Shown here one piece after another: positions 355 through 62,605 of a stretch of DNA of 64,000 nt. The stretch lies in sequence record MW233709; one strand, written 5' to 3'. The position numbers and the translations under genes were made by a program. The stretch comes from Escherichia phage UPEC01. Under the pieces are notes generated by a model. The model was not told the origin of the DNA. It saw only the letters and a program-made list of their open reading frames with translations, and made no database searches. The first letter of the stretch is position 1; each line of letters begins with the position of its first letter.

Positions 355-384
355 GTGTACATCAGTATGGAGTCTATGTATAAT
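355..384 (+). promoter_or_regulatory. early promoter cassette
   Basis: A-run, GTGTACA, TATAAT; -10 lies in loop of 9-bp inverted repeat 363-371/388-396; conserved block GATTCCATACTGAGTTAC 385-402. Confidence 0.55.
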
Positions 385-418
385 GATTCCATACTGAGTT
401 ACCAAACTGGAGAATAAA

Positions 419-574
419 ATGAAACCTGCTCAATATGCAATGACTTTATACCTTGAAGTTAATGGCGATATTACTGAATTTTTTAAATTAATGCAACAGC
501 GCGGAAAAAGTTTTGCAGTTACTGAGCGTCAATTTTACGCTTGCCGTAAAAATACATACAATCGTTATGCGTGA
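419..574 (+). CDS. small hypothetical protein (51 aa)
   Basis: ATG preceded by GGAGAATAAAATG Shine-Dalgarno context shared with other early genes here; below ORF-track size cutoff. Confidence 0.4.
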   Translation: MKPAQYAMTLYLEVNGDITEFFKLMQQRGKSFAVTERQFYACRKNTYNRYA

Positions 575-584
575 GGAAAACAGA

Positions 585-851
585 ATGGATATTAAATTAT
601 ACTACGCCAAACACAAAGTTACAGGTATGGTTGTTGCTGCTATGTATGATGCGTCAGGTGATGGTGATGATATTACTACAGAATTGTCTCTTTCTGAATG
701 TAAATTTCTTCGCCCGCTAGTTGCCTCAAAGCGTGATTTAAAAAAGCTTATTGATGGAAAACTGGATAATGTTGATGGCATAGATATTCTTTATGACCTT
801 CGCACCGCATTGCACAGGGGTCTGATTGAAATAAAAGAGGTGATATTTTGA
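585..851 (+). CDS. hypothetical protein (88 aa)
   Basis: ATG at 585 with GAGGAAAACAGA RBS; track ORF 513 begins with non-ATG codon. Confidence 0.45.
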   Translation: MDIKLYYAKHKVTGMVVAAMYDASGDGDDITTELSLSECKFLRPLVASKRDLKKLIDGKLDNVDGIDILYDLRTALHRGLIEIKEVIF

Positions 852-941
852 GCAGCAAAACCTGGTGTCTTATCTGGATGTTGTGTATCCCAGTAATTTG
901 CGTTTGTTTTAGTTTATTATTAATGAAACTTGCATAAAAGA

Positions 942-970
942 GTGTACATCTCCGGTGGTTGTAGTATAAT
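942..970 (+). promoter_or_regulatory. early promoter cassette
   Basis: GTGTACA ... TATAAT; conserved leader CCTATCAACTACTG. Confidence 0.5.
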
Positions 971-995
971 GAACCTATCAACTACTGGAGATGAT

Positions 996-1112
996 TATGA
1001 AAAAGTTACTTAAAGCCATTTGGAACATGTTTGTACTGTTTGTTGTCCTGAGCATTTTCCCAATTGTTTTTATGATTGACCATGTACGCGTTTACTTTAA
1101 CTATTTCTTTTG
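996..1112 (+). CDS. small hydrophobic peptide (38 aa)
   Basis: ATG after GGAGATGATT RBS, hydrophobic core; very short. Confidence 0.25.
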
Positions 1113-1123
1113 AGGATAATATT

Positions 1124-1330
1124 ATGAATTACAATTCACAATTTCAGAAATCTAATCGTCGCTTTGACTTTATGTTCAAGTTTATTGTGGCAATGATTAT
1201 CCTGATTTTCATTGGTGCCATTGCAATGATTGGTTTCCAGCTCTGGATTGCTGCTGAAGTGTTCACACAAATCCAGGATAATGGTTTGAAGTCTGTTGTT
1301 GATGTAATTTGGAATGGTGCTAAGCAATGA
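1124..1330 (+). CDS. small membrane protein (68 aa)
   Basis: ATG after GAGGATAATATT RBS; central hydrophobic segment IVAMIILIFIGAIAMIGF. Confidence 0.4.
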   Translation: MNYNSQFQKSNRRFDFMFKFIVAMIILIFIGAIAMIGFQLWIAAEVFTQIQDNGLKSVVDVIWNGAKQ

Positions 1331-1572
1331 AACTTTTTAAAGACATTGCAGTTGGTGAAAAATTTGTCCTGGGTAATGGTCAACAACTGATTCGCATTTC
1401 GCCTTTAATGGATAACAGTGAGCGCCCTGTGCGTACTGAAAACTGTTTGGATTATCCTTTTTATCAGAAACGTTTTGCAATTGAAAATAATACTGAGTGC
1501 TTCACAGTTGATGAACTGATGGAATCATCAGAAGAAGTTGACTTGTGGGATGGCGCGGTAGATGTAGAATAG
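1327..1572 (+). CDS. hypothetical protein (81 aa)
   Basis: ATGA start/stop overlap with upstream ORF. Confidence 0.45.
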   Translation: MKLFKDIAVGEKFVLGNGQQLIRISPLMDNSERPVRTENCLDYPFYQKRFAIENNTECFTVDELMESSEEVDLWDGAVDVE

Positions 1573-1601
1573 TGTACAAACTCATGGGAGCAGAGTATAA
1601 T
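1572..1601 (+). promoter_or_regulatory. early promoter cassette
   Basis: GTGTACA ... TATAAT flanked by short inverted repeat. Confidence 0.5.
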
Positions 1602-1639
1602 GTTCCCGTGGATAATAAAATTTAATTGAGGAAAATATT

Positions 1640-1984
1640 ATGTCTAAAGTATTTTTTGGTAATCGCAACATTATGTTCTTTAAACAGATTAGCATATCAG
1701 AAGCATTTGATTTAAGTTATTCAGGTGGTACAAAAGCTGTTAACCTTAAAAATTTGATGTCTGCAGAATTTGCATTCTATCAGGACCCTGAAACTGGTTT
1801 CTATAAATTTATTAAGTTCCGCATGACTATGGACCGCGATTATCGCGATGTTTATTATACAAGTTATGAAAGTGTTGTGAATGCAATTCGTGAAGCTTAT
1901 GGGTTGGATTCGTTGTCTCTTGACCGTCTGTATAATGCAAGCCTTTACACCAGTGGATTTATTTTAGAACAACTACAAAAATAG
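1640..1984 (+). CDS. hypothetical protein (114 aa)
   Basis: ORF with GAGGAAAATATT RBS downstream of early promoter 1572-1601. Confidence 0.5.
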   Translation: MSKVFFGNRNIMFFKQISISEAFDLSYSGGTKAVNLKNLMSAEFAFYQDPETGFYKFIKFRMTMDRDYRDVYYTSYESVVNAIREAYGLDSLSLDRLYNASLYTSGFILEQLQK

Positions 1985-2013
1985 TGTACAAACTCTTGGG
2001 GTCAGAGTATAAT
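1984..2013 (+). promoter_or_regulatory. early promoter cassette
   Basis: GTGTACA ... TATAAT; -10 in loop of inverted repeat GGGGTC 1997-2002 / GACCCC 2014-2019. Confidence 0.55.
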
Positions 2014-2057
2014 GACCCCACTGGAGCACAAAACTTTAACTTACTGAGGAAATTAAT

Positions 2058-2507
2058 ATGACTACTTACATGACCCGTCGTGACGTACTGAATGCTGGTG
2101 CTACCACTGTTGCTTATATCCATAATGGTAATTATGTTGCCGGTCGCCCAACTAAAGAAGCTATCGCTCAACCAGGTTTTTATTTCGTGGTTAAAGGTGA
2201 AGGCGAATCACGTATTGTTGCTGCACGTTTTTATGTTGGTAACCAACGTTCACAACAAGGGTTTGACACTGTATTAAGTCACATCCGCAAACAACGTTCA
2301 CAATTGTCTCGCACAATGGCGAACAATGGTGTTATCTATGAAGTCCTGTTTGTTCCAGTTTCTAAAATGAAACCCCTGACAACTGGTTATGGTAAAGGTC
2401 AAATTGCGATGGCGTTCACTCGCTCACATAGTTCTGATTGCCAGACCCTTTCAGAAATGAATCGCATGCTTGCTGATAACTTTAAATTCATTCTGCAGAG
2501 CTATTAA
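2058..2507 (+). CDS. ndd: nucleoid disruption protein Ndd
   Basis: 149 aa; motifs [50 protein letters not shown] match remembered T4 Ndd (151 aa). Confidence 0.75.
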
Positions 2508-2508
2508 T

Positions 2509-2682
2509 ATGAGACATTTCTTTACAATGGGTTACCTATTTGTTTTAGCCCTATTTGTTATTACAGGAGCCTTTATAGCCTTTGGTGCTCCATTTAATGA
2601 TAAAGTTGCTGTTACTATGTGCTTTAGTGGTGGGTATATCTGTTTTGAACGCTTATGCAAAATGTGTGGTATATATGAGTAA
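2509..2682 (+). CDS. ac: small membrane protein, possible Ac homolog (58 aa)
   Basis: Hydrophobic small ORF between ndd and stp, the position of ac in T4; assignment by position only. Confidence 0.35.
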
Positions 2683-2755
2683 TTTCCATAACGAACATGT
2701 GATGCAATGGCATCGTCATAATCTGAAATTAACCGGCGTCTTCGGACGTCCTTGA
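2675..2755 (+). CDS. stp: Stp peptide (26 aa)
   Basis: Translation [26 protein letters not shown] closely matches remembered T4 Stp ([26 protein letters not shown]). Confidence 0.65.
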
Positions 2756-2762
2756 GGAAAAT

Positions 2763-2918
2763 ATGAATAAATTTGTTCATGGTGTAGCTTTTTTCTGCTG
2801 GTCATTTTTATTTGTTGGAACATTAATAACTGGTGAAACTTCAGTATTTCTGCAGTCAACAGCTCAAGGTGTATTAGCAGTTTTATCACTATTTAAATTA
2901 TTGGATAAAAATGATTAA
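2763..2918 (+). CDS. small membrane protein (51 aa)
   Basis: ATG ORF with hydrophobic N-terminus; below track cutoff. Confidence 0.3.
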   Translation: MNKFVHGVAFFCWSFLFVGTLITGETSVFLQSTAQGVLAVLSLFKLLDKND

Positions 2919-3051
2919 GAAAATCCTGGGCTACTCGTTAGCCCTTGCTGCCTTATTGGTGGCGCTGTATTACGGAGTTGTGTTTGCGTTAGTGCAGGTT
3001 GTGCTTTTTATTTCTGATGCTATAATGGCGGTACATTCGTTAATCTGGTAA
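2911..3051 (+). CDS. small membrane protein (46 aa)
   Basis: ATG overlapping upstream stop; almost entirely hydrophobic. Confidence 0.3.
   Translation: MIKKILGYSLALAALLVALYYGVVFALVQVVLFISDAIMAVHSLIW
3003..3026 (+). promoter_or_regulatory. middle (MotA-box) promoter candidate upstream of gene 52
   Basis: TGCTTT box about 14 bp upstream of TATAAT. Confidence 0.45.
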
Positions 3052-3059
3052 GGTGATAT

Positions 3060-4439
3060 ATGTCTGACGTTTTAAGTATGATGTCCAAACAGTTCAGTGA
3101 TTCCATGGGGACCCTTAACCCCCGCAGTCTAAAAGACATTATTGATGTGGAAGCATTGTCATATGCTATCTACACTGTGGAAGGTCGCGCCATCCCAAAC
3201 ATGATTGATGGTTTTAAACCAGTTCACAGATTTGTTATGGCGAGAGCATTAGACCTGGCGCGTGGTGATAAGAATAAATTCCATAAGGTTGCCTCCATTG
3301 CAGGTGGCGTAGCTGATTATGGTTATCACCATGGCGAAGCATCAGCGGAAGAAGCAACTTCTGGTCTGGTCGCAACATATAAAAATGAATACCCCATGTT
3401 TGATGGGCAAGGCAACTTTGGTTCCAGAATGGTGCCAGAAGCATCATCAGCTCGTTATGTATTCGCACGGGTTTCAAAGAACTTTTATAACTTGTTTAAG
3501 GATACAGAATATGCTCCGGTCCATCCTGATGAAGAACATAAGCCTCCTGCTTTTTATCTTCCTGTTATTCCTACTGTATTACTTAACGCCACTTCTGGGA
3601 TTGCTGTTGGCTTCGCTACTGATATTCTTCCTCATTCGTTCCAGGACGTCAAGGAAGCTGTTAAAGCTATCGTGGAAGGTCGTGAGCCGGTTGCTCCGAA
3701 AGTAAAATATCCAGAATTCCGCGGTAAAGTGGTTGAGCTGGAAGAGCCTGGTAAGTATGAACTTCATGGCACATACAAAATGACCTCCAGGACCCAAATG
3801 GAAATTACTGAAATCCCGGTCCAATGGAACCTGGAAAAGTATACAAGTAAAATCCTGGACCCGCTGGAAGAGAAAGGTTTTATCACCTGGAAAGATAACT
3901 GCGGCGAGCATGGTTTTGGGTTTAAGATTAAATTCCGCAAAGAATACAAGTTGGATGGTACCGAAGAAGAAAATCATGAAAAAATCATGAAAGACTTTGG
4001 TCTGATTGAGAAGCTCTCCCAGAACTTAACAGTGCTTAATCACAAAGGCAAGCTGGCTGAATACACCAACACGCTTGACCTGATTCGCGATTTCGTTGAT
4101 GTCCGTAAGACTTATGTTCAAGTGCGAATTGACAGTAAGATTAAAGAAACTGAAGCAGCATTTAAACTGGCCCGGGCAAAAGTCTTCTTTATTAAAGAAG
4201 TGATTGACGGTAAGGTTGTTATCCAGGGGAAACCTCGTAAGAAGTTGATTGAGGAACTCCAGGCGAGTGAAATATATGGCGATTATGCAGAGAAGTTAGT
4301 GGCGATGAACATCTACCATATGACCTCTGATGAAGCCAAGAAGCTTGCAGACGAAGCAAAGGCTAAGAAAGCTGAGCATGAGTACTGGAAGACAACTGAT
4401 GTTAAAACTGAATACCTTAATGATTTGGAGGCTCTATGA
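3060..4439 (+). CDS. 52: DNA topoisomerase II medium subunit gp52
   Basis: 459 aa; GyrA/ParC-like N-terminal region (AIPNMIDGFKPVHR, YHHGEAS, QGNFGS) as in T4 gp52. Confidence 0.9.
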   Translation: MSDVLSMMSKQFSDSMGTLNPRSLKDIIDVEALSYAIYTVEGRAIPNMIDGFKPVHRFVMARALDLARGDKNKFHKVASIAGGVADYGYHHGEASAEEATSGLVATYKNEYPMFDGQGNFGSRMVPEASSARYVFARVSKNFYNLFKDTEYAPVHPDEEHKPPAFYLPVIPTVLLNATSGIAVGFATDILPHSFQDVKEAVKAIVEGREPVAPKVKYPEFRGKVVELEEPGKYELHGTYKMTSRTQMEITEIPVQWNLEKYTSKILDPLEEKGFITWKDNCGEHGFGFKIKFRKEYKLDGTEEENHEKIMKDFGLIEKLSQNLTVLNHKGKLAEYTNTLDLIRDFVDVRKTYVQVRIDSKIKETEAAFKLARAKVFFIKEVIDGKVVIQGKPRKKLIEELQASEIYGDYAEKLVAMNIYHMTSDEAKKLADEAKAKKAEHEYWKTTDVKTEYLNDLEAL

Positions 4440-4534
4440 GTTTTGGAGTTGAGTTTGCATTGCTTTGTATTTTCGCGGCAATCGCAGGTGTGATTGTTGG
4501 TATGTTTATTGGTAATAAGATAGATAAAGACTAG
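4436..4534 (+). CDS. small hydrophobic peptide (32 aa)
   Basis: ATGA overlap with gene 52 stop; followed by terminator hairpin. Confidence 0.25.
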   Translation: MSFGVEFALLCIFAAIAGVIVGMFIGNKIDKD

Positions 4535-4557
4535 GACCCTTCGGGGTCCTTTTTTAT
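4533..4557 (+). terminator. intrinsic terminator
   Basis: GGACCC-TTCG-GGGTCC hairpin plus T-run. Confidence 0.7.
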
Positions 4558-4568
4558 TTTAAAAAAGT

Positions 4569-4598
4569 AGTGTACAAACCCCTTGTCTTAGGACATAA
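4569..4598 (+). promoter_or_regulatory. early promoter cassette
   Basis: AAAAAGTAGTGTACA ... CATAAT, preceded by terminator hairpin; conserved block 4599-4619. Confidence 0.6.
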
Positions 4599-4648
4599 TG
4601 ATTCCATACTGAGTTACACAATGAATCACAAAAACTTTGGAGAATAAA

Positions 4649-4864
4649 ATGTTTACTGCACAACAGAATGAAGGTCAAGAATACATCAACGCTAAATTCA
4701 AATCTAACAAAGAAGCTTGCTATTATTACTTTGACATGTTCAAACTGGCAAACTCTAAAGAAGAACGTAAACAAGCAATTGATGTGATTGTTTCTACTTC
4801 CCATATGAAACGTACTGTGGTACAATCATATGCATCAAATTATATGAAATCTATTAAGGGATAA
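4649..4864 (+). CDS. hypothetical protein (71 aa)
   Basis: ATG after GGAGAATAAAATG; track start 4637 is TTG. Confidence 0.45.
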   Translation: MFTAQQNEGQEYINAKFKSNKEACYYYFDMFKLANSKEERKQAIDVIVSTSHMKRTVVQSYASNYMKSIKG

Positions 4865-4866
4865 TT

Positions 4867-5475
4867 GTGAACAAGTTAAATTATATCGTTAAATGCTCCC
4901 AGAATGCGCTGCATGAGACTGATGTCAATGCTTTGGTGTTTGTATACAAAAACAACTTCGTGAGTCCAGAGGTTGTTTTAGACCAGCAGAACACATCAAT
5001 TGATAGCGTACAGACATTGTTGAATAACAACTATGTTGAAGCTTCTGGTGATGGTTTGATGATTACAGAAAAGGGTGTTGACCTTATTCTGGATGCAGCT
5101 GAACTTTGGGCGAATGAAAATAATCCTGACCTTCTGGAAGTGAAGAAGACAAGAACAAAACGCGGTGTGACTGATGAAATGGAAGCGACTGCAGAATATA
5201 TCAAAGAGCAATTGTTGTCTATTGGTATTGACTTTAAGAGCATTTCAGAAGACCGCAGCAATCTGATTGTGAAGTTCAAGCGTATCAAGACATTAAAACA
5301 GATTGATGTTCGTCGTGATGGTCAGATTCGCGTACATGCGTATAATACTGAACAAAAGATAGTAAAACAGTTTACAGACGTGGGATTTAGCGTTAAAGTA
5401 GGTGGATTGAATACCTACATTGACAACGTTATGTCAACTGAAAACATTCAACATGTTATTAACATCTTAAAGTGA
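4867..5475 (+). CDS. motA: middle transcription activator MotA-like
   Basis: 202 aa, GTG start; SGDGL.IT motif and position between gene 52 and asiA match T4 MotA (211 aa). Confidence 0.7.
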   Translation: MNKLNYIVKCSQNALHETDVNALVFVYKNNFVSPEVVLDQQNTSIDSVQTLLNNNYVEASGDGLMITEKGVDLILDAAELWANENNPDLLEVKKTRTKRGVTDEMEATAEYIKEQLLSIGIDFKSISEDRSNLIVKFKRIKTLKQIDVRRDGQIRVHAYNTEQKIVKQFTDVGFSVKVGGLNTYIDNVMSTENIQHVINILK

Positions 5476-5485
5476 GGAAATTGTT

Positions 5486-5662
5486 ATGAACATCTATCTG
5501 ATTAAGTACCTAAAAGATGGTAAAGAACGTGATTACCAAATCCCCGCAAAAAATGAATATGATGCGTGTGTTCGCCTTGGTCAGATTCATGGTGATGACC
5601 GTGAATATCGCAATGATGTTGAAATTGAAATCCAATCTGTAACTTTGAAAGTGAGAGGCTAA
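5486..5662 (+). CDS. hypothetical protein (58 aa)
   Basis: ATG with GAGGAAATTGTT RBS right after motA stop. Confidence 0.4.
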   Translation: MNIYLIKYLKDGKERDYQIPAKNEYDACVRLGQIHGDDREYRNDVEIEIQSVTLKVRG

Positions 5663-5664
5663 TC

Positions 5665-5997
5665 ATGAATAAGCTGAATATTGTTAATGAATTGCGCGCT
5701 TGTGTAGAACCTACTCAAGAGGGTTGGGATGTTTGGTATCATGGCGCTTACCTTGGAACTATTGTCAAGGTCAAAGCTGGTCAGTATCTTATCCATCGTC
5801 AGGATGATGCAGTAGCTCCGTTTGGTGCACGCAAGAACTTCATGGCAGCGATTGGTGCCTTTGTTCCAGCAGCATATGAAGTATATAAAGCTGACTATAA
5901 AGAATACCAGGAATCACAACCAGTTATTCGCTCAATTGGTGTTAATAAAGCTCAACAGAAAAGTCTGTGGCAACGTGTTAAAGGTTGGTTCAAATGA
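5665..5997 (+). CDS. hypothetical protein (110 aa)
   Basis: ORF with GAGAGG RBS. Confidence 0.5.
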   Translation: MNKLNIVNELRACVEPTQEGWDVWYHGAYLGTIVKVKAGQYLIHRQDDAVAPFGARKNFMAAIGAFVPAAYEVYKADYKEYQESQPVIRSIGVNKAQQKSLWQRVKGWFK

Positions 5998-6332
5998 TTC
6001 CTATGGAACTAAACTGGGATGGCGAAGGCCATTCCCTTAAATTGATTGAAGAGCAACGTAACGCTTGGGATGAGCGCTGTGCCTTGGTGAATGGTATTAA
6101 GGTAATTTATAACCTTCATCTCCAGATTGATAATGTTCCTCTTGAGTTTGGTATGCAGTTATCACGTTTTCTTGAGATTATTACTATAGAAAAAGTATCC
6201 ATAACTTCGTATGGTGTATGCCAAACAGTTGATATCAAATTGACTTCTTCTGACAAAGGCGAGTTGATTGGTATTGGTGATAAAATTCATGAATTCGTGA
6301 AATATAATGGTTATAAGGTGATTATCAAATGA
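5994..6332 (+). CDS. hypothetical protein (112 aa)
   Basis: ATGA overlap with upstream ORF; track start 5985 is TTG. Confidence 0.5.
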
Positions 6333-6817
6333 ATCCATTAAAAGGTAAAGCATTATCCTTTAAAGAACGGATGACCTTGTTAGATAAAGCTCTTTCTCGT
6401 GAGACTCCTGAAAGTCTCGCTGCTAAATTACAGGCATATGGTGATTACACTGAATATACCGAAGAAGACGTTCTGAAAGAAGTCCCAGAAATCTGTTGGC
6501 AGATTGCACATTGGAATAACAATGAAAAATATCAGCGACGGATTGTATGTGCAGCTAACCGCTTTAAGCTAAAAGATGGTGGGACTCTGGTTATTCCTGG
6601 AGCCAGACATTATTCAAAAGATATGGCAGAAGTGCTTGACCAGGTAAGTGATAAACTTGTGTCAGACCATGTTTGTGGTGATAATCAAGGATTTATTGAC
6701 CAATACAGCAATTACTGGACCCGCGAAGAAGCAATGATTATTGCGACTTATGCAAATCAGGTGCGCATTGAACGTGGCGGTAGTGAGAAAGAACTTTATT
6801 CAGAGGACCTTTACTAA
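6329..6817 (+). CDS. hypothetical protein (162 aa)
   Basis: ATGA-coupled ORF. Confidence 0.5.
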
Positions 6818-7095
6818 TGAATCTTAAGCAACTCCAGATTGATGCAATCGAAAACCATATTAATCATATCAAACGTCTGAACACCATGATGGAAGACAAT
6901 TGGGGAACTTATGTCAACCAACCCGGTTGGGATGCTTTAGACCATGAATATATAAAGGATATTAGTGATAACACATATAGAGTTAGAGAAGGCCTGAAAC
7001 CCTTCCTGCGTGATATGTATATTGCAACAAATAAAGCAATTATTAACTATCTTGAATACCAATTAAGGGAATTGCATGAACAATCTTGTAGCTAA
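6817..7095 (+). CDS. hypothetical protein (92 aa), possible Arn-position gene
   Basis: Size and location between motA and asiA match T4 arn (92 aa); no sequence-level confirmation. Confidence 0.45.
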   Translation: MNLKQLQIDAIENHINHIKRLNTMMEDNWGTYVNQPGWDALDHEYIKDISDNTYRVREGLKPFLRDMYIATNKAIINYLEYQLRELHEQSCS

Positions 7096-7184
7096 ACACG
7101 ATTTCAATAAGGCGTCTGTCCATAAGGACAAGAAGAAAACAGAAATGCAGTCCAAACGTAAGCAGAAGCACAAGGGGAATCACT

Positions 7185-7349
7185 ATGAGTCATAATTTAG
7201 AGAACGCCATCACTGGTCAGCGTATACGCGAGCAAGAGTGCTTTGATGAATTCCTTGGGGCTGATTTTAAGTTCCAGGAACCAATTGAAGATATGTATCA
7301 GACATATGCTGCACAGATGGAAAATCATGTGTACAACCCAGAGGAATAA
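7185..7349 (+). CDS. small hypothetical protein (54 aa)
   Basis: ATG with AAGGGGAAT RBS. Confidence 0.3.
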   Translation: MSHNLENAITGQRIREQECFDEFLGADFKFQEPIEDMYQTYAAQMENHVYNPEE

Positions 7350-7407
7350 TAGTACAATATCCTTACTGAATAATTGAATGTCTTATTGAATACTTGAGTA
7401 AATTAAA

Positions 7408-7683
7408 ATGACTAAATTTGAAATCGTTTCTGAAATTGTTACTGTAACTTCAATTTTGATTAAAACCGACCGGGAAGATATTACGATGAAGCGTGATGTG
7501 TTTATCGCGTTTTTGAATGAGTTGGGATTGAGGAATGAGAATGGGAATGAGTTAAACAACGTATCGTTTAACAAGTTGTTTAAAAGTTTATCTGAAGATG
7601 AAATTGAACAAATCATTGAACAATTTAACGAAGGATTCGAAGATATACATCGTTATCTTATGATGTATACCTCCGGATTCTAA
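7408..7683 (+). CDS. asiA: anti-sigma70 factor AsiA
   Basis: 91 aa; VTS.ILIK..REDI, FIAFLNE.G, FNEGFE..RYL.MYT match T4 AsiA (90 aa). Confidence 0.85.
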   Translation: MTKFEIVSEIVTVTSILIKTDREDITMKRDVFIAFLNELGLRNENGNELNNVSFNKLFKSLSEDEIEQIIEQFNEGFEDIHRYLMMYTSGF

Positions 7684-8333
7684 CGTGTACGTCCGAGCGT
7701 ACGACCTGCTTGTCCACACATAGCAGAAAGCCTATCAAAACCAAGGTTAGGTTTTTGCTTATACCAGTACAGTGAGACTGTACCTGCATAAACGTTCTCT
7801 AGATTAAAGAATGGGCAGCTGAACATATATTCGAAGCTGCTTTTTTTCTTTGTTGGTAAGAATACAGATTCCGTACCGGATTCAAAATAATTACCATTAA
7901 CCCCTGCCAAATATTCCGCTGAAGTCTTATCTATTGGAAACCCACCCAAATTTTTCTCGTCGACTGATTCAGGTAATATCCCCTCGTACCCCACCATATC
8001 CACGAAGTAGTTAAGGTTAGTTGGTCTAAAAGAATATATCGCTGTAAAGTCAGCTCCGCTTGATGAGTGAACTATCTGGATTTGCTCGATAGCTGCAATT
8101 TTAAATCTGTTATCCTGGTCTTGCCTTATCATTTCTGTGTACGAGGCATATGAAGCATCCCTATACGCATCTAAAATTGCATCACCTTTATACCAGATTA
8201 CCGCCATTAAAAATAATAGAACAATAACTAGTACCCGGGAAAAGACAACTTTCCCGGTCGCATTATCTTTAAAAATTCTATCAAGAAGTCCAAAAAGTAG
8301 GTCGGGGATTGAGATTCCTACTTTTGGTTCCAT
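7680..8333 (-). CDS. t: holin T
   Basis: 217 aa; LDR.FKDNATGKV, LEQLQIVH.SS.ADF.A.YSFRP.NLNYFVD match T4 holin (218 aa); downstream of gene 38. Confidence 0.9.
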   Translation of the reverse strand: MEPKVGISIPDLLFGLLDRIFKDNATGKVVFSRVLVIVLLFLMAVIWYKGDAILDAYRDASYASYTEMIRQDQDNRFKIAAIEQIQIVHSSSGADFTAIYSFRPTNLNYFVDMVGYEGILPESVDEKNLGGFPIDKTSAEYLAGVNGNYFESGTESVFLPTKKKSSFEYMFSCPFFNLENVYAGTVSLYWYKQKPNLGFDRLSAMCGQAGRTLGRTR

Positions 8334-8359: not shown

Positions 8360-8370
8360 GCGCAAAAGTA

Positions 8371-9144
8371 TTATAGCCAGGAGCCATAGATAGTGCCTGT
8401 AGCACCCCATGTCGGTGAACTTCCGAATACTGCTCTACCAGGAGCACCACCCCCCGACCTGGATAAGTGATTGCCCCATCCGTCGCCACCAGCGCCACCT
8501 GCATCACCTCCATTACCACCGCCAAATTGACTTGTATTACCACCACCACCTGGGCCGTCATAACTAGCATTACCGCCAGGCCAATTAACGCCACCGCCGC
8601 CGAGACCAAATGGTCGACCGCCTCCCCCACCTGCGGTAGAATTTGCAGGCCAACTATTCTGTAATGATACGGCACCGCCGCCGCCACCACCAGAGGCTAT
8701 CACACCATAATTCCAAATGCGAAGTCGTCCACCAATATCATTTTGGATTACGTCGCCACCATTAGTGCCTGGGCTTCCATTTACGCTACCATTACCACCA
8801 CGGCCCCACATATGAACGCCACCATGAATATTCAAAGTAACATATTCGTTAGGGGTATCACCGTACATAAAGAACAACGGAACATCTTTAGTATATGATA
8901 CTAAGTTGCCTGTGATATTAAACACTATAGGAGCACCGCCGGCTTCAAAACAACGGTCACGGAACCATTGACCATTAAAGTTATGGTCAGCTCCAAGAGT
9001 GTGAATTACTTCAACAGAACGGCCGTTCATATTGCTCATCCAAAACGGAATGCTCATTCTTAATCGTTGGGCCGCTCCACCCATCCAATTTTGTCCTGTA
9101 TTAGCTACTGCAGACCCTCCAACCCACGGTCCTACTACTGCCAT
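8371..9144 (-). CDS. 38: long tail fibre adhesin gp38 (T2-type, glycine-rich motifs)
   Basis: Start at [10 protein letters not shown] after GGAGG RBS; conserved N-terminal region ([40 protein letters not shown]) and C-terminal poly-Gly blocks as in T2/T6-type gp38. Confidence 0.85.
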
Positions 9145-9175
9145 ATAAACCTCCAAGGGGCCGAAGCCCCTCTTA

Positions 9176-12100: not shown

Positions 12101-12478
12101 GCCATCAAAGAAACGAAGGTGCGAAGTAGAAGCGCTCTTAGAAATCAGTTCGCCACCTTCAGTCATTATCTGACCTGCTGCAATAATATCACGAGTTACA
12201 CGAGCAATTCCAGTTAAATTAAAATTACCTGTCTGGGTAAATGTGCCATTGATGGTATAATCACCGGTTTGATTATAATTGCCTTTATGAATAACGTTAC
12301 CATCGATATTGCCACCCTTAGCAAAACCAAGGTCAATAATAGCTCCGGTATCATCCTTTGTGAATAACAAGCGGTCTTTCAAGTTAATTGCGAGTTCACC
12401 TTCAGCCAATACAGTTGGGGTTGGGCGGACACCAGCAATTTTACTTCTTTTAAATTGTATTTGTTTTAAAGTAGCCAT
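9176..12478 (-). CDS. 37: long tail fibre distal subunit gp37 with C-terminal intramolecular-chaperone-like domain
   Basis: 1100 aa; N-terminus [17 protein letters not shown] identical to T4 gp37; C-terminal ~110 aa (DIRVKKN...[14 protein letters not shown]...[15 protein letters not shown]...[11 protein letters not shown]) resembles S74-type chaperone domains. Confidence 0.9.
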
Positions 12479-12486
12479 AATGCCTC

Positions 12487-13134: not shown

Positions 13135-13170
13135 TTCAAATCCTCTTCGGTCAGCTTATTCATTATTCAA

Positions 13171-13178
13171 TATTTATA
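13171..13178 (-). promoter_or_regulatory. late promoter for gene 36
   Basis: TATAAATA on - strand between gene 35 terminator and gene 36 start. Confidence 0.6.
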
Positions 13179-13180
13179 AC

Positions 13181-13203
13181 GAAAAAAGGACCCGAAGGTC
13201 CTT
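13181..13203 (-). terminator. intrinsic terminator after gene 35
   Basis: GGACC-TTCG-GGTCC hairpin followed by T-run on - strand. Confidence 0.65.
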
Positions 13204-14332: not shown

Positions 14333-14340
14333 ATTACCTC

Positions 14341-45133: not shown

Positions 45134-45135
45134 GG

Positions 45136-52382: not shown

Positions 52383-52772
52383 ATGAATATAAACAAAATG
52401 TATAGCGATGTGTCTCCCGACTTATCTACAAGTTGGGATAAAGACGTTGCTAAAGTAACCGGTGCAAGGTCTGTTAAGAACAGTCTTCTGGGAATAATCA
52501 CCACAAGAAAAGGGTCAAGGCCTTTTATGCCTGAATTTGGATGTGATATAAGTAATCAGCTTTTTGAGAATATCACTCCATTAATCACAGATACCATTAA
52601 ACGCAACATCGTCTCCGCTGTGCGGAACTTTGAACCAAGGATAAGCAATCTACAGGTTGCAGTTGTCCCTATGTATGATGATAACTCCATTATCGTAACG
52701 GTTCAGTTCAGCATTGTTGATGACCCTGATACCCTCGAACAAATCAGGATTCAGCTAAGTCAAAACGGTTAA
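52383..52772 (+). CDS. 25: baseplate wedge subunit gp25
   Basis: 129 aa (T4 gp25 132 aa); synteny. Confidence 0.75.
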   Translation: MNINKMYSDVSPDLSTSWDKDVAKVTGARSVKNSLLGIITTRKGSRPFMPEFGCDISNQLFENITPLITDTIKRNIVSAVRNFEPRISNLQVAVVPMYDDNSIIVTVQFSIVDDPDTLEQIRIQLSQNG

Positions 52773-52797
52773 TGCTTTAATTTTATGGCTGTATAAT
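52773..52797 (+). promoter_or_regulatory. middle promoter candidate upstream of uvsY
   Basis: TGCTTTA box, 14 bp, TATAAT followed by GGTTCTAGACCC...GGATAC. Confidence 0.55.
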
Positions 52798-52825
52798 GGT
52801 TCTAGACCCTTACATTGGATACATT

Positions 52826-53857: not shown

Positions 53858-54085
53858 TTAGAAATCTTCGTCTTCGTCTTCGTCCATATCCTCAAGCTCG
53901 GCACGTTTACCGGCAAGAGCGTCACGAACACTGATATCATCGGAATCTTTCAGTTCAGCTTCTTTGCTGCGTTTCTTATAATAGCCTTCCAACTCCTTCA
54001 GACCGTCCATGGTCTGACAGGAACCAATCTTAGCCATAAAGCCTTCAATTGATGCTTCGTACATAATTTCTTCGAAGGATTTCAT
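53858..54085 (-). CDS. UvsW.1-like small acidic protein
   Basis: 75 aa with acidic tail DMDEDEDEDF; T4 UvsW.1 is 76 aa and follows uvsW. Confidence 0.5.
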   Translation of the reverse strand: MKSFEEIMYEASIEGFMAKIGSCQTMDGLKELEGYYKKRSKEAELKDSDDISVRDALAGKRAELEDMDEDEDEDF

Positions 54086-54780
54086 TATATTTCCACCTGT
54101 TTAATTAAATTTCTGATTTTATATAAAGAAAGCCCCGTTGCTACAGAAGCTTGCTTCATCGAACCATATTCAATCCCGTTTAAAACCACTTTCTTAGCGG
54201 CAGGATTTTTGGATGGGTCTTTATAACGTTCTTTTGCTTTATCTGAAATTTTCTTTGATGCTTCTGGTGTATGTGATTTACCATACATCCAATTACCTTC
54301 ACCTTTATTTCTTTCGGATATAGCTTGACATTGTGCTTGAGAGTATTTATACGGATTCGCTTTCTTTGTCGCAGATATTTTATCGGCCCAAGTTATTTTG
54401 CGACCCTTTAATAATTGGCTCATATATTCTTTATGTTCTTCAGTATGGTGCTTACCATAAAAAGGATTGCCTTCACCAGTCTGAAGAACTGACATTTGTC
54501 TACGCTCCCATCCATACGATTTATTGAATTGTCGTTGATGTGTTCGAGAGCTCATACCCATAGCAATGACGGCCTTTATAAGACCGTAATGATTGGGATG
54601 AATTTTGGCCAATAATTTATGTGCAATAAAATGTTCTTCCGGAGTAAGGTTGACTCTGTTTTCTTGTGTATCAGGTCCACCCATACATTCTGGAATGATA
54701 TGGTGAGATTCCGTGTATCCAATCGGTTTGGAAGCCTTTCGGCTCCCAATTAAATCATCATATATTTTTTGATAATTCAA
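54085..54780 (-). CDS. HNH homing endonuclease with NUMOD-like repeats
   Basis: 231 aa; HNH core (GYTESHHIIPECMGGPDTQENRVNLTPEEHFIAHKLL) and repeated G-x-GNPFYGK-HT-E motifs; inserted between uvsW and uvsW.1. Confidence 0.85.
   Translation of the reverse strand: MNYQKIYDDLIGSRKASKPIGYTESHHIIPECMGGPDTQENRVNLTPEEHFIAHKLLAKIHPNHYGLIKAVIAMGMSSRTHQRQFNKSYGWERRQMSVLQTGEGNPFYGKHHTEEHKEYMSQLLKGRKITWADKISATKKANPYKYSQAQCQAISERNKGEGNWMYGKSHTPEASKKISDKAKERYKDPSKNPAAKKVVLNGIEYGSMKQASVATGLSLYKIRNLIKQVEI
54089..54107. repeat. 19-bp direct repeat, copy 1
   Basis: Exact match to 54781-54799. Confidence 0.9.
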
Positions 54781-58142: not shown

Positions 58143-58172
58143 AAAAGGGACCTTCGGGTCCCTTTATTTTTA
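58143..58172 (+). terminator. intrinsic terminator after hoc
   Basis: GGGACC-TTCG-GGTCCC plus T-run. Confidence 0.75.
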
Positions 58173-58307
58173 TGGTACTGAGCAAACGTTGTCTGGACCC
58201 TTTCTCCAGTGAGTCTTTGTGGTCATACCATAACAATTGTTCATCTGACATAAAACTCCTGTTTACAAGTTAAAAATTCCATGTTAAGATAGCTTCACTA
58301 ACTCAAC

Positions 58308-58511
58308 ATGAGAATCATTATGGATAAGGTTAAAGTACATTTTCTGCATGAATCTGGCATGACATTTATTGAAATCGCCAAGGTATTAGGCGGGACTGCT
58401 AAAGAGATGGCAAAAGCCTGGGTTGATGTAGAACAAGCCAAAGCTAAATTTAAAGCGAAAGAAAAGATTGTTTATCGTAAACGTTTGAATAACAAAAAGG
58501 TGAAGAAATGA
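58308..58511 (+). CDS. hypothetical protein (67 aa)
   Basis: ORF between hoc and rnlB (T4 24.3 position); alternative start 58320. Confidence 0.45.
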   Translation: MRIIMDKVKVHFLHESGMTFIEIAKVLGGTAKEMAKAWVDVEQAKAKFKAKEKIVYRKRLNNKKVKK

Positions 58512-58771: not shown

Positions 58772-58777
58772 CCTTTT

Positions 58778-58803
58778 TGCTTCAAATAAAATTGTGGTAT
58801 AAT
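58778..58803 (+). promoter_or_regulatory. middle promoter candidate upstream of rnlB
   Basis: TGCTTCA box, 15 bp, TATAAT followed by GGTTCTAGACC...CGATAC. Confidence 0.5.
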
Positions 58804-58901
58804 GGTTCTAGACCTTCCGATACGATTAATTTCTTTTCAGAGAAAGAAAGTATAGAGAGTCTAATTTATAATGATATTTATAACATCAAAAGTGAGAGAT
58901 T

Positions 58902-59909: not shown

Positions 59910-59910
59910 A

Positions 59911-59940
59911 AAAAAGGGCCGCAAGGCCCTTATTCTTTTT
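59911..59940. terminator. bidirectional intrinsic terminator
   Basis: AGGGCC-GCAA-GGCCCT flanked by A-run and T-run, between convergent rnlB and gp24 paralog. Confidence 0.7.
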
Positions 59941-61213
59941 CCAGTGGCGGAAGTTTAACGCCAAGATAAGAACTCAATTGGCTTTGGTTAGCCATCTTAT
60001 CCATATCAGCCCCATCAATAAGGCGGGCTTCTTTATCGTCTTTAGCAACGGTATAGGGGTTCGCTGTCAATGCATAACGAGCTAACAGTGCAACCGTAGG
60101 CTGTAAGCTTTCAGGGTCAACAATAACCTTGAATTCTCCGACCGATGTATCCCCCTCATCATCAACTTCGCTAAGTCCTTCCGTATAAGGCGCATAATAC
60201 AAAGATGCGACCGTCTGACCTTCACCCATATCAGCATTTACACCGACAATAACATAATCACATGGACTATTCATATCTGCGTAAAGAGGCAAACCGTTCT
60301 TCAGAACACCATAGGCTAATTCATCCTGGTCTTCCTTTTTCTCAACCCAGCCAGAAGCGGCTAAAATAGCTGCACAACGGGAAGAAGCAACCGCATATGT
60401 ACCAGCAAACGAAGTCTGACGTTGAACTGCAGAATTCATTTCACACATATAATAATACAGGGTTCGTGCGCGGTCCTGTGCGTTATCATATTTCGGGTCA
60501 GTGAGATTCAACACACCTTTTTCAGAAACACCTTGTACCTTGAAGCGAGAACTAACAGTAATAAGGGATTGCAATACATCCTTATTAATTTCCTCTGCCA
60601 TTTGAATGCCGAGAATATTATCGATGAAGTCTGTTGCATCGAAACCGTTTGCTTCCAGGTCCTGAGCAAGCTCGACAGTTAAAGAAGTTTTCAACTTTCT
60701 GGATTTAACTTCAGTCTGCCATTTATCGATACGGAAACCAGCTTCAGCAATTTCAGGATGCCCCTTTTCAAATTTATCAGTGAAAGCAGCATCTGACATC
60801 ATTCTTATATGTCCAGCAGCAATGGCTTCAGAAATAACTTCACCTAAATCAGTTTCGAGTGTCCCGGCAAAGGGGGAAGCTTCCAGAACTTTGAATACAA
60901 CGCTTTCAAACTGAAACATATCGCCGACTGCATAAGCTTCATCTTTGTTCGTAAATTCTGGAATATTCTTACGCTCGAACATACCAATCTGACCTGCAAA
61001 TGTTGCTCCACCGAGATATGTCATTTTATCATCTGGGTTCAGAACACGAACACCATACAACGCTGCAACAGGCTGTGTAGTTTTCTGTTCGGCAACGAGT
61101 GCTTTAAAAATTCGTTTATTCGTGGCCTGGGTATAAGAAAGCAAATTAGGACGGGCGACCTGGTTGGCCGCCGTTAATGTTGATTCGTGAATTAGTGCGT
61201 TAATCTTTTGCAT
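59930..61213 (-). CDS. gp24-like capsid vertex protein, diverged tandem paralog
   Basis: 427 aa; alignable end-to-end with adjacent gp24 (KSRKLKT.LTVELAQD.EANGF, INKDVLQSLITVS, ANPYTVAKDDKEAR.ID) at roughly half identity. Confidence 0.8.
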   Translation of the reverse strand: MQKINALIHESTLTAANQVARPNLLSYTQATNKRIFKALVAEQKTTQPVAALYGVRVLNPDDKMTYLGGATFAGQIGMFERKNIPEFTNKDEAYAVGDMFQFESVVFKVLEASPFAGTLETDLGEVISEAIAAGHIRMMSDAAFTDKFEKGHPEIAEAGFRIDKWQTEVKSRKLKTSLTVELAQDLEANGFDATDFIDNILGIQMAEEINKDVLQSLITVSSRFKVQGVSEKGVLNLTDPKYDNAQDRARTLYYYMCEMNSAVQRQTSFAGTYAVASSRCAAILAASGWVEKKEDQDELAYGVLKNGLPLYADMNSPCDYVIVGVNADMGEGQTVASLYYAPYTEGLSEVDDEGDTSVGEFKVIVDPESLQPTVALLARYALTANPYTVAKDDKEARLIDGADMDKMANQSQLSSYLGVKLPPLEKE

Positions 61214-62494
61214 TTACGCCTCATAAATGATTGGCGGAAGTTTAACACCGAGCAGATAAGACATATTGCTCTGACCGGCCATTAAATCCATATTGGTTGC
61301 ATCGATAATACGAGCTTCTTTATCGTCTTTAGCAACGGTGTAAGGGTTAGCTGAAAGTGCATAACGAACCATCAAAGAGATAGCTGGTTGCAAACTGTCA
61401 GGGTCCACAATGACTTTAAACGCGCCTACATGCTCTTCATCATCTAAGTCCAGGCCTTCGGTATAAGGAGCATAGAAGATTGAGCCTACGACTTCGTTTC
61501 CGCCGTAATTTTCTTTAACGCCAACGGTTACATAATCCAATGGACTGTTAACATCACAGAATACAGGAAGACCATTAATCAAATAACCGTACGCTGTTTC
61601 AGGAAGCCACTGTTCGTCTTCAGGTTTATGCTTCAGCCAGCCAGAACCGGCCAACATAGCAGCAACACGGCTGGAGGCAACAACAAAGGTACCGGAATAA
61701 GATGTAGTTTTCTGAATTTCGGAGTTCATTTCGCAAACCAGTTCGTACAGTTTACGTGCGCCTTCTGGAGCTGCATCATATGTTAAATCGATGGTGCCAT
61801 TGTCAGAAACACCAGTTACTTTATAACGCTTGGAAACGGTAATAAGAGACTGAAGAACATCTTTGTTAATTTCATCTGCCATAATAGTAGCAAGCAGGTC
61901 TTCCAGGAAAGCAGGAGCATTAAAGCCATTTGCTTCCATATCCTGAGCAAGCTCAACAGTTAATGCAGTTTTCAATTTACGGGATTTAACAGGAGCATTC
62001 CATTTATTAACCTGGAATACAGCGTTACTAATTTCAACATCACCGGCTTCAAATTTCTCGGTGTGCGCTGCATCAGGAACCAAACGAATGGTTAATGCAA
62101 TAAGACCTTCTTGCAGAACATCTGATAATACAGTTTCGGTAGTCGATGCAAATGGATTATCAACCAGAGCTTTGTAAACGATATTTTGGTATTTTACATA
62201 TTCGCCTTTAGCAACAGGCTGAGTGGCTGTAGTTAATTCTGGAATAGTTGTACGGTCTTTAGAACCGACTTCGCCTCCATAAGTAGCGCCCGTCTGGAAA
62301 CTGAATTCATTATCAGGAGTAAGATATTTAACACCATACAGTGCAGCAACAGGCTGGTTAGTACGTTGTTCAGCGATGATATCGCGGTAAATCAATTTAG
62401 TCGTAGCGCGGGTCAAAGCAACAAGATTCGGGCGGCCCAATGAGTTGCTGGTAGTAATAGTTGACTCGCGCAGTAATTTGTTAATCTTTGCCAT
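61214..62494 (-). CDS. 24: capsid vertex protein gp24
   Basis: 426 aa; near-identical blocks to T4 gp24 (MAKIN.LLREST.T.SNS.GRPNLVALTRATTKLIY, QPVAA.YG.KYL.PDNEF). Confidence 0.9.
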   Translation of the reverse strand: MAKINKLLRESTITTSNSLGRPNLVALTRATTKLIYRDIIAEQRTNQPVAALYGVKYLTPDNEFSFQTGATYGGEVGSKDRTTIPELTTATQPVAKGEYVKYQNIVYKALVDNPFASTTETVLSDVLQEGLIALTIRLVPDAAHTEKFEAGDVEISNAVFQVNKWNAPVKSRKLKTALTVELAQDMEANGFNAPAFLEDLLATIMADEINKDVLQSLITVSKRYKVTGVSDNGTIDLTYDAAPEGARKLYELVCEMNSEIQKTTSYSGTFVVASSRVAAMLAGSGWLKHKPEDEQWLPETAYGYLINGLPVFCDVNSPLDYVTVGVKENYGGNEVVGSIFYAPYTEGLDLDDEEHVGAFKVIVDPDSLQPAISLMVRYALSANPYTVAKDDKEARIIDATNMDLMAGQSNMSYLLGVKLPPIIYEA

Positions 62495-62520
62495 TTGCGC
62501 TTTCCTTTTGTGATATACTT

Positions 62521-62528
62521 TATTTATA
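62521..62528 (-). promoter_or_regulatory. late promoter for gene 24
   Basis: TATAAATA on - strand upstream of gene 24 start at 62494. Confidence 0.6.
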
Positions 62529-62534
62529 AAAGTT

Positions 62535-62564
62535 GTTTACAACCAGATTAAGATAAGACATAAT
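62535..62564 (+). promoter_or_regulatory. early promoter cassette
   Basis: GTTTACA ... CATAAT; conserved block 62565-62582. Confidence 0.6.
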
Positions 62565-62605
62565 GATTCCATACTGAGTTAACAAACAAAACCTGGAGTT
62601 TAAAA

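Follow-up and report, generated by a model that had tools for sequence, protein, structure and literature searches.

Probable early-gene expression cassettes of the promoter-early stem-loop class in Escherichia phage UPEC01 and their modest enrichment as points of gene exchange

In T4-type phages, promoter-early stem-loop (PeSL) cassettes are defined at the sequence level by a sigma-70-type promoter, an A-rich tract, a stem-loop, a 3' Shine-Dalgarno (SD) sequence with a start codon, dispersed copies and location in variable regions (Arbiol 2010, PMC2839356; Comeau 2014, PMC4122927). The formation of mini-circles between PeSLs was shown experimentally in RB49 and phi1, and terminator-like activity was shown for one promoter-embedded stem, with homologous and site-specific exchange both being left open (Arbiol 2010, PMC2839356). 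Here, a set of repeated promoter elements is described in a stretch of Escherichia phage UPEC01 DNA (sequence record MW233709; 64,000 nucleotides, referred to below as the window), corresponding to a Gaprivervirus T4-like coliphage that is 94-98% identical over the full length to TH41, ECML-359, VR20, SP18 and others. Every one of the sequence-level defining features listed above is present, as the initial annotation had proposed in assigning these elements to the PeSL class. We place at roughly 80% the probability that the sites are early-gene expression cassettes of this class in a T4-like phage.

A strict search of the window for the extended T4-type motif GT(G/T)TACA-N15-18-(C/T)ATAAT returned 10 matches on the + strand and none on the - strand, as compared to a chance level, both strands considered, of 0.054 on average and 2 at most (Markov-1 resampling). 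When up to two mismatches were allowed, 29 + strand and 15 - strand matches were obtained. Eighteen of these 29 fall between genes, each with an A-tract on its upstream side and an SD sequence and an ATG on its downstream side. As such, 10 strict and 8 relaxed sites make up 18 cassettes, all on the + strand and upstream of + strand genes, at positions 355, 942, 1572, 1984, 4570, 7329, 21570, 22003, 22290, 22981, 31028, 32571, 34615, 38304, 38748, 45136, 58261 and 62535; at least 17 had been proposed earlier. A generic sigma-70 scan was also tried as a test for cassettes and rejected, given that it offered no discrimination (31 sites vs. 25.7 expected in positions 1-8000). Only the extended T4-type motif is an informative pattern.

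The cassettes, 70-115 bp in length, share a common anatomy. An A-tract with the consensus AAAAAGTA abuts the -35 element, and at 17 of the 18 sites the 12 nt preceding that element include 4-8 A residues. A spacer of about 17 bp separates the -35 and -10 elements. The -35 element reads GTGTACA, i.e., with G at the third position, at half of the sites (9/18), and the first position of the -10 element is C instead of T at seven. The -10 element is followed by G(A/G)TTCCAT, in which CAT, lying some 7 nt downstream, corresponds to the usual start context. An SD-like sequence and an ATG, the latter about 17 to 50 nt past the -10 element, follow all 18 sites, with the SD-like sequence being weak in two (GAGTAA at 7329 and GAGAAT at 58261). 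Fourteen cassettes precede small unknown, DUF-type or FRD2-family open reading frames (ORFs) in the ndd.x, frd.x, 30.x, alt.-3 and 24.3 regions, with the remaining four preceding ndd, asiA, an ORF ahead of motA and an ORF ahead of alc.

The likeness between cassettes continues into the sequence that would be transcribed. Two conserved leader blocks had been reported, and both are present far above chance, although several of the coordinates given were 1 to 5 nt off. Block A is found at 385, 4600, 38334 and 62565 (0.00 expected), with a variant at 23011, and block B at 975 (one mismatch), 21604 and 31062 (0.10 expected), with a two-mismatch variant at about 22037. A blind repeat search recovered both leader families (as D1-D3, D8 and D11) and revealed a third leader/stem family that had been missed, D6 (1572, 1984 and 32571). 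Families D1-D3, D6 and D8 span 60-83 nt. Family A transcripts are predicted to start with AUACUGAGUUA(C/A)ACA (sites 355, 4570, 22981, 38304 and 62535) and family B transcripts with AUCAACUACUGA (942, 21570, 22003 and 31028, and more loosely 34615 and 45136), while those from D6 cassettes would start with the 3' arm of the D6 stem. The families also go with particular ribosome-binding sites, namely, CTGGAGAATAAAATG in the case of family A and TGAGGAAA...ATG in the cases of D6 and of family B, apart from 942, which contains GGAG. An Rfam search returned no family match anywhere in the window, and the leaders are therefore not a known RNA family. Copies said to be exact, terminator included, are in fact near-exact, 4538-4607 and 21538-21607 sharing 86% identity across 70 nt. 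Exact matches between copies extend to some 30 nt at most (the 4570 and 38304 cassettes).

In five cassettes, the 3' end is formed by an exact 11-mer, GGAGAATAAAA, at 409, 4639, 23042, 38365 and 38805, as compared to the 0.39 copies expected in the window; the last A of the 11-mer is the A of the start codon. In T4, this sequence was identified as optimal for cleavage by RegB/S1 (Durand et al. 2006, PMC1702504). None of the five is contained in a predicted stem and, as judged by the 11-nt GGAGRAYARAA pattern, single-strandedness and location in a predicted early transcript, all five are candidate RegB/S1 targets. The regB gene itself is annotated in VR20 and lies beyond the window. The remark that downstream genes carry RegB targets thus holds for this subset of cassettes and fails for most genes. 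Indeed, the statement that most downstream genes use GGAG was not borne out, with GGAG preceding about 13 of 82 + strand genes and 7 of the 18 cassette genes; GAGG(AAA) is the commoner sequence (30 of 82 + strand genes).

Folding of the 56-58 nt from the -35 element onward at each site, with z-scores calculated against dinucleotide shuffles, revealed a significant hairpin at 11 of the 18 sites (z <= -2.1). The -10 element lies in the loop in nine (355, 942, 1572, 1984, 22003, 22290, 22981, 32571 and 38748), with the stem lying in the leader in the other two (31028 and 58261). At three further sites, 4570, 21570 and 38304, a textbook intrinsic terminator is found 20-35 nt upstream (z -3.0 to -4.3), such that a stem-loop in one of the five promoter-relative positions known for PeSLs is seen in 14 of the 18 cassettes, mostly overlapping the -10 element and sometimes placed over the -35 element or as an upstream terminator. 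The earlier description of the -10 element as lying in a hairpin loop in many copies had under-reported, rather than over-reported, such hairpins, including the stem of ~17 bp at 942. Of the inverted repeats described, those at 363-371/388-396 and 38757-38765/38779-38787 are exact; the third is real although off by one, corresponding to 1998-2003/2014-2019 or, as a 7-bp stem, to 1997-2003/2014-2020.

Comparison with other genomes places the cassettes in a defined group of phages. The 113-bp cassette at 38262-38374 recurs in 9-13 places per genome in Gaprivervirus records. Outside Gaprivervirus, matches are confined to the terminator part, the exception being Morganella phage MP1 (74%). Further family A and B copies, one of them upstream of regB, are present in a second region of VR20. 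The same architecture is found at the T4 frd locus, where a terminator and promoter follow gene 32 and where a GGGTA/TACCC stem encloses in its loop the -10 element of a second promoter, with ATCAAAAC coming next. No description of PeSLs in Gaprivervirus was found in the literature searched, with JS98 being mentioned in passing (Arbiol 2010, PMC2839356). In terms of sequence, then, the cassettes are of the PeSL class known from other T4-type phages, in a Gaprivervirus set not found described before.

By analogy with T4, unmodified host sigma-70 RNA polymerase would start early transcription some 7 nt past the -10 element, relying on strong UP, -35 and -10 elements, to yield transcripts predicted to begin with AUACUGAG... 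or AUCAACUAC.... The hairpin, be it a true terminator upstream or a stem with the -10 or -35 element in its loop, would form only in RNA read through from upstream and may attenuate or mark that transcript, in which case each downstream gene would depend on its own promoter. As infection proceeds, mRNAs from the five cassettes ending in GGAGAATAAAA would probably be cut in the ribosome-binding site, corresponding to RegB-mediated shut-off. Finally, repeated cassettes of 30-70 bp near-identity could serve as portable homology at gene boundaries for the very active homologous recombination of the phage, so that a gene could be inserted, lost or swapped as a unit with its controls.

Exchanges of this kind can be traced among relatives. 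The homologous 64 kb was assembled from nine relatives and each was aligned to the window. Downstream of gene 32, the order gp32-[P]-A-[P]-B-[P]-C-D-[P]-E, where [P] denotes a cassette and A to E are genes, is found in the window, TH41, VR20 and TH40, as opposed to gp32-[P]-C-D-[P]-A-[P]-B-[P]-E in TH15; alignments of TH57 and ECML-359 point to a rearrangement similar to that in TH15, and the order in T4 differs again (B-A-E). The cassette after gp32 is the same up to CATAATGATTCCAT, and is then followed either by leader B and gene A or by leader A and gene C, with leader A and a different gene following the cassette 7 promoter (21570) in TH15, TH57 and ECML-359. At the junction after gene D, identity extends up to AAATTTAAAAAGT, with divergence beyond. 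Breakpoints of the swap fall in cassettes 9 (22290) and 10 (22981), the latter also being the breakpoint of an ORF deletion in TH54.

The gp24/gp23 locus is found in three states. The window contains a cassette, a 93-amino-acid (aa) ORF and a terminator (62526-62935), and TH57 contains nothing, while TH15 presents the same upstream sequence through the -35 element, then another -10 element and a 219-aa GIY-YIG seg-like gene (composite 65466-66220). The position of this seg-like gene is comparable to that of T4 segD, and the gene is unrelated to the 93-aa ORF of the window. At cassette 38304, TH57 contains an extra ORF between two copies of the terminator, and TH54 an insertion of the same size with the same breakpoints. 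A 2.1-2.2 kb insertion in TH15 and TH44 ends exactly at the -35 element of cassette 58261. Cassette 1572 is absent in VR20, where only a 17-bp gap separates the genes, as alignments indicate is also the case in TH15 and TH57, and is replaced in TH40 and TH22. A sign of exchange between dispersed copies is seen in the relatives, in which cassette 4570 has a spacer resembling the one in cassette 21570, 17 kb away. As a separate observation, losses of small ORFs extending from start codon to start codon, independent of cassettes and with 4-12 bp of microhomology, were seen at 5486-5662 (8 of 9 relatives), 419-574 (3 relatives) and 6002-6324 (2 relatives).

Excluding breakpoints at record ends, the tail-fibre adhesin mosaic (~8.3-15.9 kb) and cassette-to-cassette cross-hits, 46 distinct structural differences were identified in the early regions of the nine relatives, 18 of which touch a cassette junction. 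The false breakpoints at the ends of TH records reflect terminal redundancy in those records. Breakpoint events per junction came to 1.0 at cassettes vs. 0.58 elsewhere (p = 0.04). When changes in identity across the early regions were called with a three-state hidden Markov model, 10 of 81 change points fell in cassettes, which account for 5.3% of the sequence, as compared to 4.3 expected (p = 0.011); by junction, 10 of 18 cassette junctions and 17 of 64 others contained a change point (p = 0.023). Cassettes are thus modestly, about two-fold, enriched as exchange points, and most exchanges occur elsewhere. The comparison of cassette-flanked ORF content across relatives that the initial annotation had called for accordingly yielded clear positive cases and an overall excess of only about two-fold. 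As to its description of the cassettes as recombination hotspots, exchange junctions do lie inside them; since the enrichment is two-fold and borderline, the term is suggestive rather than proven.

Several points weigh against the PeSL reading. When junctions hit by structural differences are counted, the excess is weak (9-10 of 18 cassette junctions vs. 22 of 64 other + strand junctions; Fisher p 0.09-0.18), and all of these p-values are rough because the relatives are not phylogenetically independent. Some 60% of the structural differences and some 88% of the identity change points lie away from cassettes. Many insertions and deletions are exact ATG-to-ATG events in which conserved ribosome-binding regions provide 4-22 bp of microhomology, while other exchanges outside cassettes are insertions resembling homing-endonuclease genes. 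Among the 18 sites folded, no significant stem was found at 7329, 34615, 45136 and 62535, and most of the stems that span the -10 element lack a U-run and are therefore not canonical terminators. Lastly, promoter, terminator and RegB activities, as well as the recombination mechanism, are ascribed to the cassettes by analogy with T4, RB49 and phi1.

One alternative explanation holds that the sites are ordinary strong early promoters, alike because RNA polymerase constrains them and playing no special role in recombination, with insertions and deletions co-locating only because both are confined to intergenic sites and dispensable regions. The weak excess at the level of junctions and the prevalence of insertions and deletions at cassette-free junctions with short microhomology are as expected in such a case, as is the combination of variable spacers and conserved functional boxes, a pattern predicted by selection on promoter function. 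Yet crossovers can be located within the conserved cassette core, a duplicated terminator flanks an inserted ORF, and cassettes show an approximately two-fold excess of both change points and breakpoint events. Conservation of the leaders and ribosome-binding sites, moreover, goes well past what contact with the polymerase needs, and mini-circles have been shown to form between PeSLs in RB49 and phi1 (PMC2839356). On balance, ordinary promoters offer an unlikely explanation, albeit one that retains some weight.

In the late promoters of T4 lysozyme and I-TevI, a hairpin restricts translation to those transcripts that start inside it. The hairpin promoters of the window could similarly represent mainly a translational or RNA-processing gate, with the stem hiding the leader or ribosome-binding site in read-through RNA and only transcripts started inside the hairpin being translated. 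Cassette 942 fits such a role, given that both the first ATG and the GGAG ribosome-binding site fall within the 3' arm of its ~17-bp stem, and the 5' arm in nine cassettes precedes the predicted start and so would be absent from self-initiated RNA. However, only at 942 is a ribosome-binding site clearly sequestered, the SD sequence elsewhere lying 10-40 nt beyond the stem, and seven cassettes have no such stem. Gating as the general role of the stems was accordingly rejected, and as the principal explanation for the hairpin promoters it is quite improbable.

In a set of 55 distinct cassettes from seven genomes, the longest Watson-Crick run between the spacer of a cassette and its own leader averaged 4.71, as compared to 4.04 +/- 0.14 with the leaders of other cassettes, a value of 4.71 being reached in 0 of 2000 permutations. 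This own- versus cross-partner permutation was used instead of column-wise counting of covariation because stem registers differ between cassettes. Paralogs pair with differing sequences (GGGAGC/GCTCCC, GGGGTC/GACCCC and GGGAGC/GTTCCC), and such retention of pairing despite sequence change argues for selection on structure.

Cassette 32571 presents a further peculiarity. In both the window and TH41, the 10 nt of its loop read ATTATACTCT, exactly the reverse complement of AGAGTATAAT, the loop found in five relatives (examined by eye) and in paralogs 1572 and 1984, such that TATAAT is placed on the - strand. A BLAST search of phage records returned 93 with this cassette, of which only that of TH41 is at least 99% identical to the window; the other 92, at ~91% or less, are by their level of identity consistent with the standard loop orientation. 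Pattern scans of IMG/VR with the two loop orientations gave 0 and 1 match and were uninformative. A 474-bp ORF found just downstream of this cassette in seven relatives is missing in the window and TH41. As inversion of a loop is the expected product of hairpin-templated strand switching, this finding hints that the stem forms in DNA, although it is a single case and no proof of a regulated switch. The notion that the inverted repeats around the -10 element are active DNA structures, with loop inversion serving as a heritable on/off switch of individual early promoters, is doubtful, something of a long shot. If flips were to recur, they would represent quasi-palindrome-based variation of early gene expression in T4-like phages, and such structures, if real, could also make cassettes prone to recombination.

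A dedicated, integron-like site-specific system moving gene cassettes as mini-circles, a possibility to which the module swaps and the three-state locus bounded by cassettes lend some colour and which Arbiol 2010 (PMC2839356) left open alongside homologous exchange, is very improbable because the crossover point is not constant (it falls after the -10 element, in the A-tract, at the -35 element or in the terminator T-run, depending on the case), the cassettes have no associated recombinase, and the variable microhomologies fit general homologous or short-homology recombination.

The individual cassettes, all on the + strand, are as follows, beginning in the ndd region. Cassette 1 (343-421) comprises an A-tract, a -35 element at 355-361, a -10 element at 379-384 in the loop of a 13-bp stem (362-374/385-397; z -4.67), leader A at 385-405, the GGAGAATAAAA SD sequence at 409-419 and an ATG at 419. 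Cassette 2 (933-999), upstream of an ndd.4-like ORF, contains a -35 element at 942-948, a -10 element at 965-970, a leader B variant at 975-987 and a stem of ~17 bp (947-964/975-992) that takes in the GGAG SD sequence (z -5.79). Cassettes 3 (1563-1642) and 4 (1975-2060) belong to family D6; the former has its -35 element at 1572, its -10 element at 1596-1601 in a hairpin loop and an ATG at 1640 (z -4.00), and the latter, preceding ndd (ATG 2058), its -35 element at 1984 and its -10 element at 2008-2013 in the loop of 1997-2003/2014-2020 (z -3.15). Cassette 5 (4533-4651) is a composite in which an intrinsic terminator (4533-4550) and T-run are followed by a -35 element at 4570, a -10 element at 4594-4599, leader A at 4600-4620, GGAGAATAAAA at 4639-4649 and an ATG at 4649, upstream of a small ORF and motA. 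Cassette 6 (7320-7410), with a -35 element at 7329, a TACAAT -10 element at 7353-7358 and no significant stem, precedes asiA (ATG 7408).

The second composite, cassette 7 (21531-21640), follows gene 32 and contains a terminator at 21531-21552, a -35 element at 21570, a -10 element at 21594-21599, leader B at 21600-21616 and an ATG at 21638. Cassette 8 (21994-22065), before a frd.3-like ORF, has its -35 element at 22003, a TATTAT -10 element at 22028-22033 in a hairpin (z -3.10) and a leader B variant. The weak cassette 9 (22281-22352) combines a GTATACA -35 element at 22290 with a GATAAT -10 element at 22312-22317 in the loop of a 7-bp stem (z -2.13), with the ATG at 22350 being that of an FRD2-family ORF. 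In cassette 10 (22970-23054), the -35 element at 22981 and the -10 element at 23005-23010, in a hairpin (z -2.89), are followed by a leader A variant at 23011-23031, GGAGAATAAAA at 23042-23052 and the ATG at 23052 of a frd.1-like ORF. Cassette 11 (31017-31091) has GGGG/CCCC arms flanking its -35 element at 31028, a -10 element at 31052-31057, leader B at 31058-31074 with a leader hairpin (z -2.18) and an ATG at 31089. Cassette 12 (32562-32637), the third D6 member, comprises a -35 element at 32571, a stem at 32585-32590/32601-32606 (z -3.08) enclosing the inverted loop at 32591-32600, and an ATG at 32635.

Cassette 13 (34606-34675) has a GTTTACT -35 element at 34615, a -10 element at 34638-34643, an ATG at 34673 and no significant stem. 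Cassette 14 (38264-38377) is again a composite, with a terminator (38264-38283) and T-run, a -35 element at 38304, a -10 element at 38328-38333, leader A at 38334-38354, GGAGAATAAAA at 38365-38375 and the ATG at 38375 of a 30.8-like ORF. Cassette 15 (38739-38817) serves a 30.7-like ORF (ATG 38815) and contains a GTTTACT -35 element at 38748, a TATTAT -10 element at 38771-38776 in the loop of an 11-bp stem (38755-38765/38779-38789; z -4.62) and GGAGAATAAAA at 38805-38815. Cassette 16 (45127-45199), with a -35 element at 45136, a TACAAT -10 element at 45160-45165 and the ATG at 45197 of an alt.-3-like DUF5498 ORF, adjoins late baseplate genes. Cassette 17 (58252-58310) has a -35 element at 58261, a weak -10 element, TAAGAT, at 58285-58290, a leader hairpin (z -2.56) and the ATG at 58308 of a DUF2774 ORF. 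Finally, in cassette 18 (62526-62608), the -35 element at 62535, -10 element at 62559-62564 and leader A at 62565-62585 precede the ATG at 62606 of the 93-aa ORF lying between late genes gp24 and gp23.

The small cassette-linked ORFs pointed to earlier in otherwise late regions (45197-45487 and 62606-62887) are indeed found among late genes, and a bidirectional terminator closes each. A UUCG-loop terminator of the GGGACCTTCGGGTCCC family at 45489-45510 (z -3.70) closes the alt.-3 unit against gp54, and that at 62893-62919 (z -4.39) closes the 62606-62887 unit against gp23. Another member of the GGGACCTTCGGGTCCC family lies after hoc, upstream of cassette 17 (58144-58165; z -3.87). In the blind repeat search, a terminator family GGGACC-TTCG-GGTCCC (D5) was recovered at 4525, 21525, 45483, 58138 and 62889, with terminator z-scores ranging from -3.0 to -4.4. 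A second terminator pair, AAAGGGCTTCGGCCCTTTTT, also with a UUCG tetraloop, is found after nrdB (29444-29469) and after DNA ligase (43011-43036).

Gene annotation was carried over from VR20 (~96% identical, as are TH41 and ECML-359), and the gene order of the window is reversed relative to the conventional T4 map. The window begins with the ndd region, gp52, motA and asiA (+), followed by t and tail-fibre genes 38-34 (-). A long + strand block then comprises rnh, 33, 59, 32, the frd region, td, nrdAB, denA, rnlA, alc, pseT, cd, 31, rIII, the 30.x genes, ligase, alt and alt.-3. Beyond this lie baseplate genes 54-51 (-), 26, 25 and uvsY (+), uvsW (-), inh, hoc and rnlB (+) and, lastly, two gp24 paralogs (-), the small + strand ORF and gp23 (-). 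The two gp24 (capsid vertex) paralogs are in tandem (59930-62494, - strand) and share ~65-71% DNA identity, an arrangement also found in relatives. The tail-fibre genes (~8360-15870, - strand) are a mosaic in which identity to relatives is 66-87% or lost and in which segments each match different relatives; this looks like the usual shuffling of adhesins, separate from the cassettes. A 231-aa ORF with NUMOD3 motifs between uvsW and uvsW.1 (54085-54780, - strand), absent in all nine relatives examined, looks like a homing endonuclease; its 3' part (54596-54779) shares 73% identity with an insertion at the pseT/cd.4 junction in TH40 and TH57. MotA-box middle promoters preceding uvsY (52771-52825) and rnlB (58776-58831) share the -10-plus-leader sequence GTATAATGGTTCTAGACC, and constitute a small middle-promoter counterpart of the early cassettes. 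Further MotA-box sites lie at 18336, 20372, 24155, 33548 and 36908.

These findings would extend PeSL-type cassettes to Gaprivervirus, a genus with many members that are candidates for therapy and biocontrol, and provide base-level examples of unrelated genes exchanged together with their controls via cassettes. The cassette map predicts early transcription units and genes likely controlled by RegB, and marks places where gene content is expected to differ between near-identical phages. The current picture of T4-type genome evolution is left unchanged.

Units comprising a promoter, an ORF and a terminator are known as morons in lambdoid phages. The 62526-62919 segment, where a cassette, the 93-aa ORF and a terminator lie between two late genes on the opposite strand, resembles a moron, also in being present, absent or replaced among relatives. 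Unlike lambdoid morons, it resides in a lytic T4-like genome, is presumably expressed early in infection instead of from a prophage, and relies on control sequences common to many resident genes.

With T4-type early promoters (Hinton 2010, PMC2988021; Nolan et al. 2006, PMC1524935), the cassettes share GTTTAC at -36 to -31, A-rich sequence at -40 to -44, a strong -10 element, C residues at -3 to -1 and a location before early genes and novel ORFs. They differ in the preference for G at the third -35 position, in the C that opens the -10 element in seven sites and in conserved transcribed leader families that are absent from the published consensus. As in T4 (PMC1702504), RegB/S1 sites are represented by an exact 11-mer, GGAGAAUAAAA, in five cassettes, serving as the ribosome-binding site and abutting the AUG; in contrast to T4, the 11-mer occurs in only 5-7 of the 18 cassettes and the sites are predicted ones, with regB seen only in VR20.

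The PeSLs of T4/PST and KVP40/nt-1 (PMC4122927) are also close to the cassettes. The T4/PST consensus TTTACW-N17-TAYWAT fits the present sites, and in both cases composite terminator-promoter units are found near insertions, deletions and replacements, with the ndd and frd regions being affected in each. Stems are drawn just upstream of the promoter in PST/T4, whereas most span the -10 element here, and the present families of cassette sequence are specific to Gaprivervirus. As with the PeSLs of RB49 and phi1 (PMC2839356), an AT-rich tract, a sigma-70-type promoter, a stem-loop, an SD sequence and an ATG are combined, with the stem mostly between the boxes or over the -10 element. Both sets likewise run to dozens of copies, placed mainly ahead of small genes of unknown function in variable regions, and in both some cassettes flank insertions or deletions between close relatives. 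In contrast to RB49 and phi1, the -35 element here is GT(G/T)TACA, of the T4 type, and not TTGACA, the stems are not poly-G/poly-C, and the cassettes fall into three discrete leader families, with a RegB-type ribosome-binding site in five copies.

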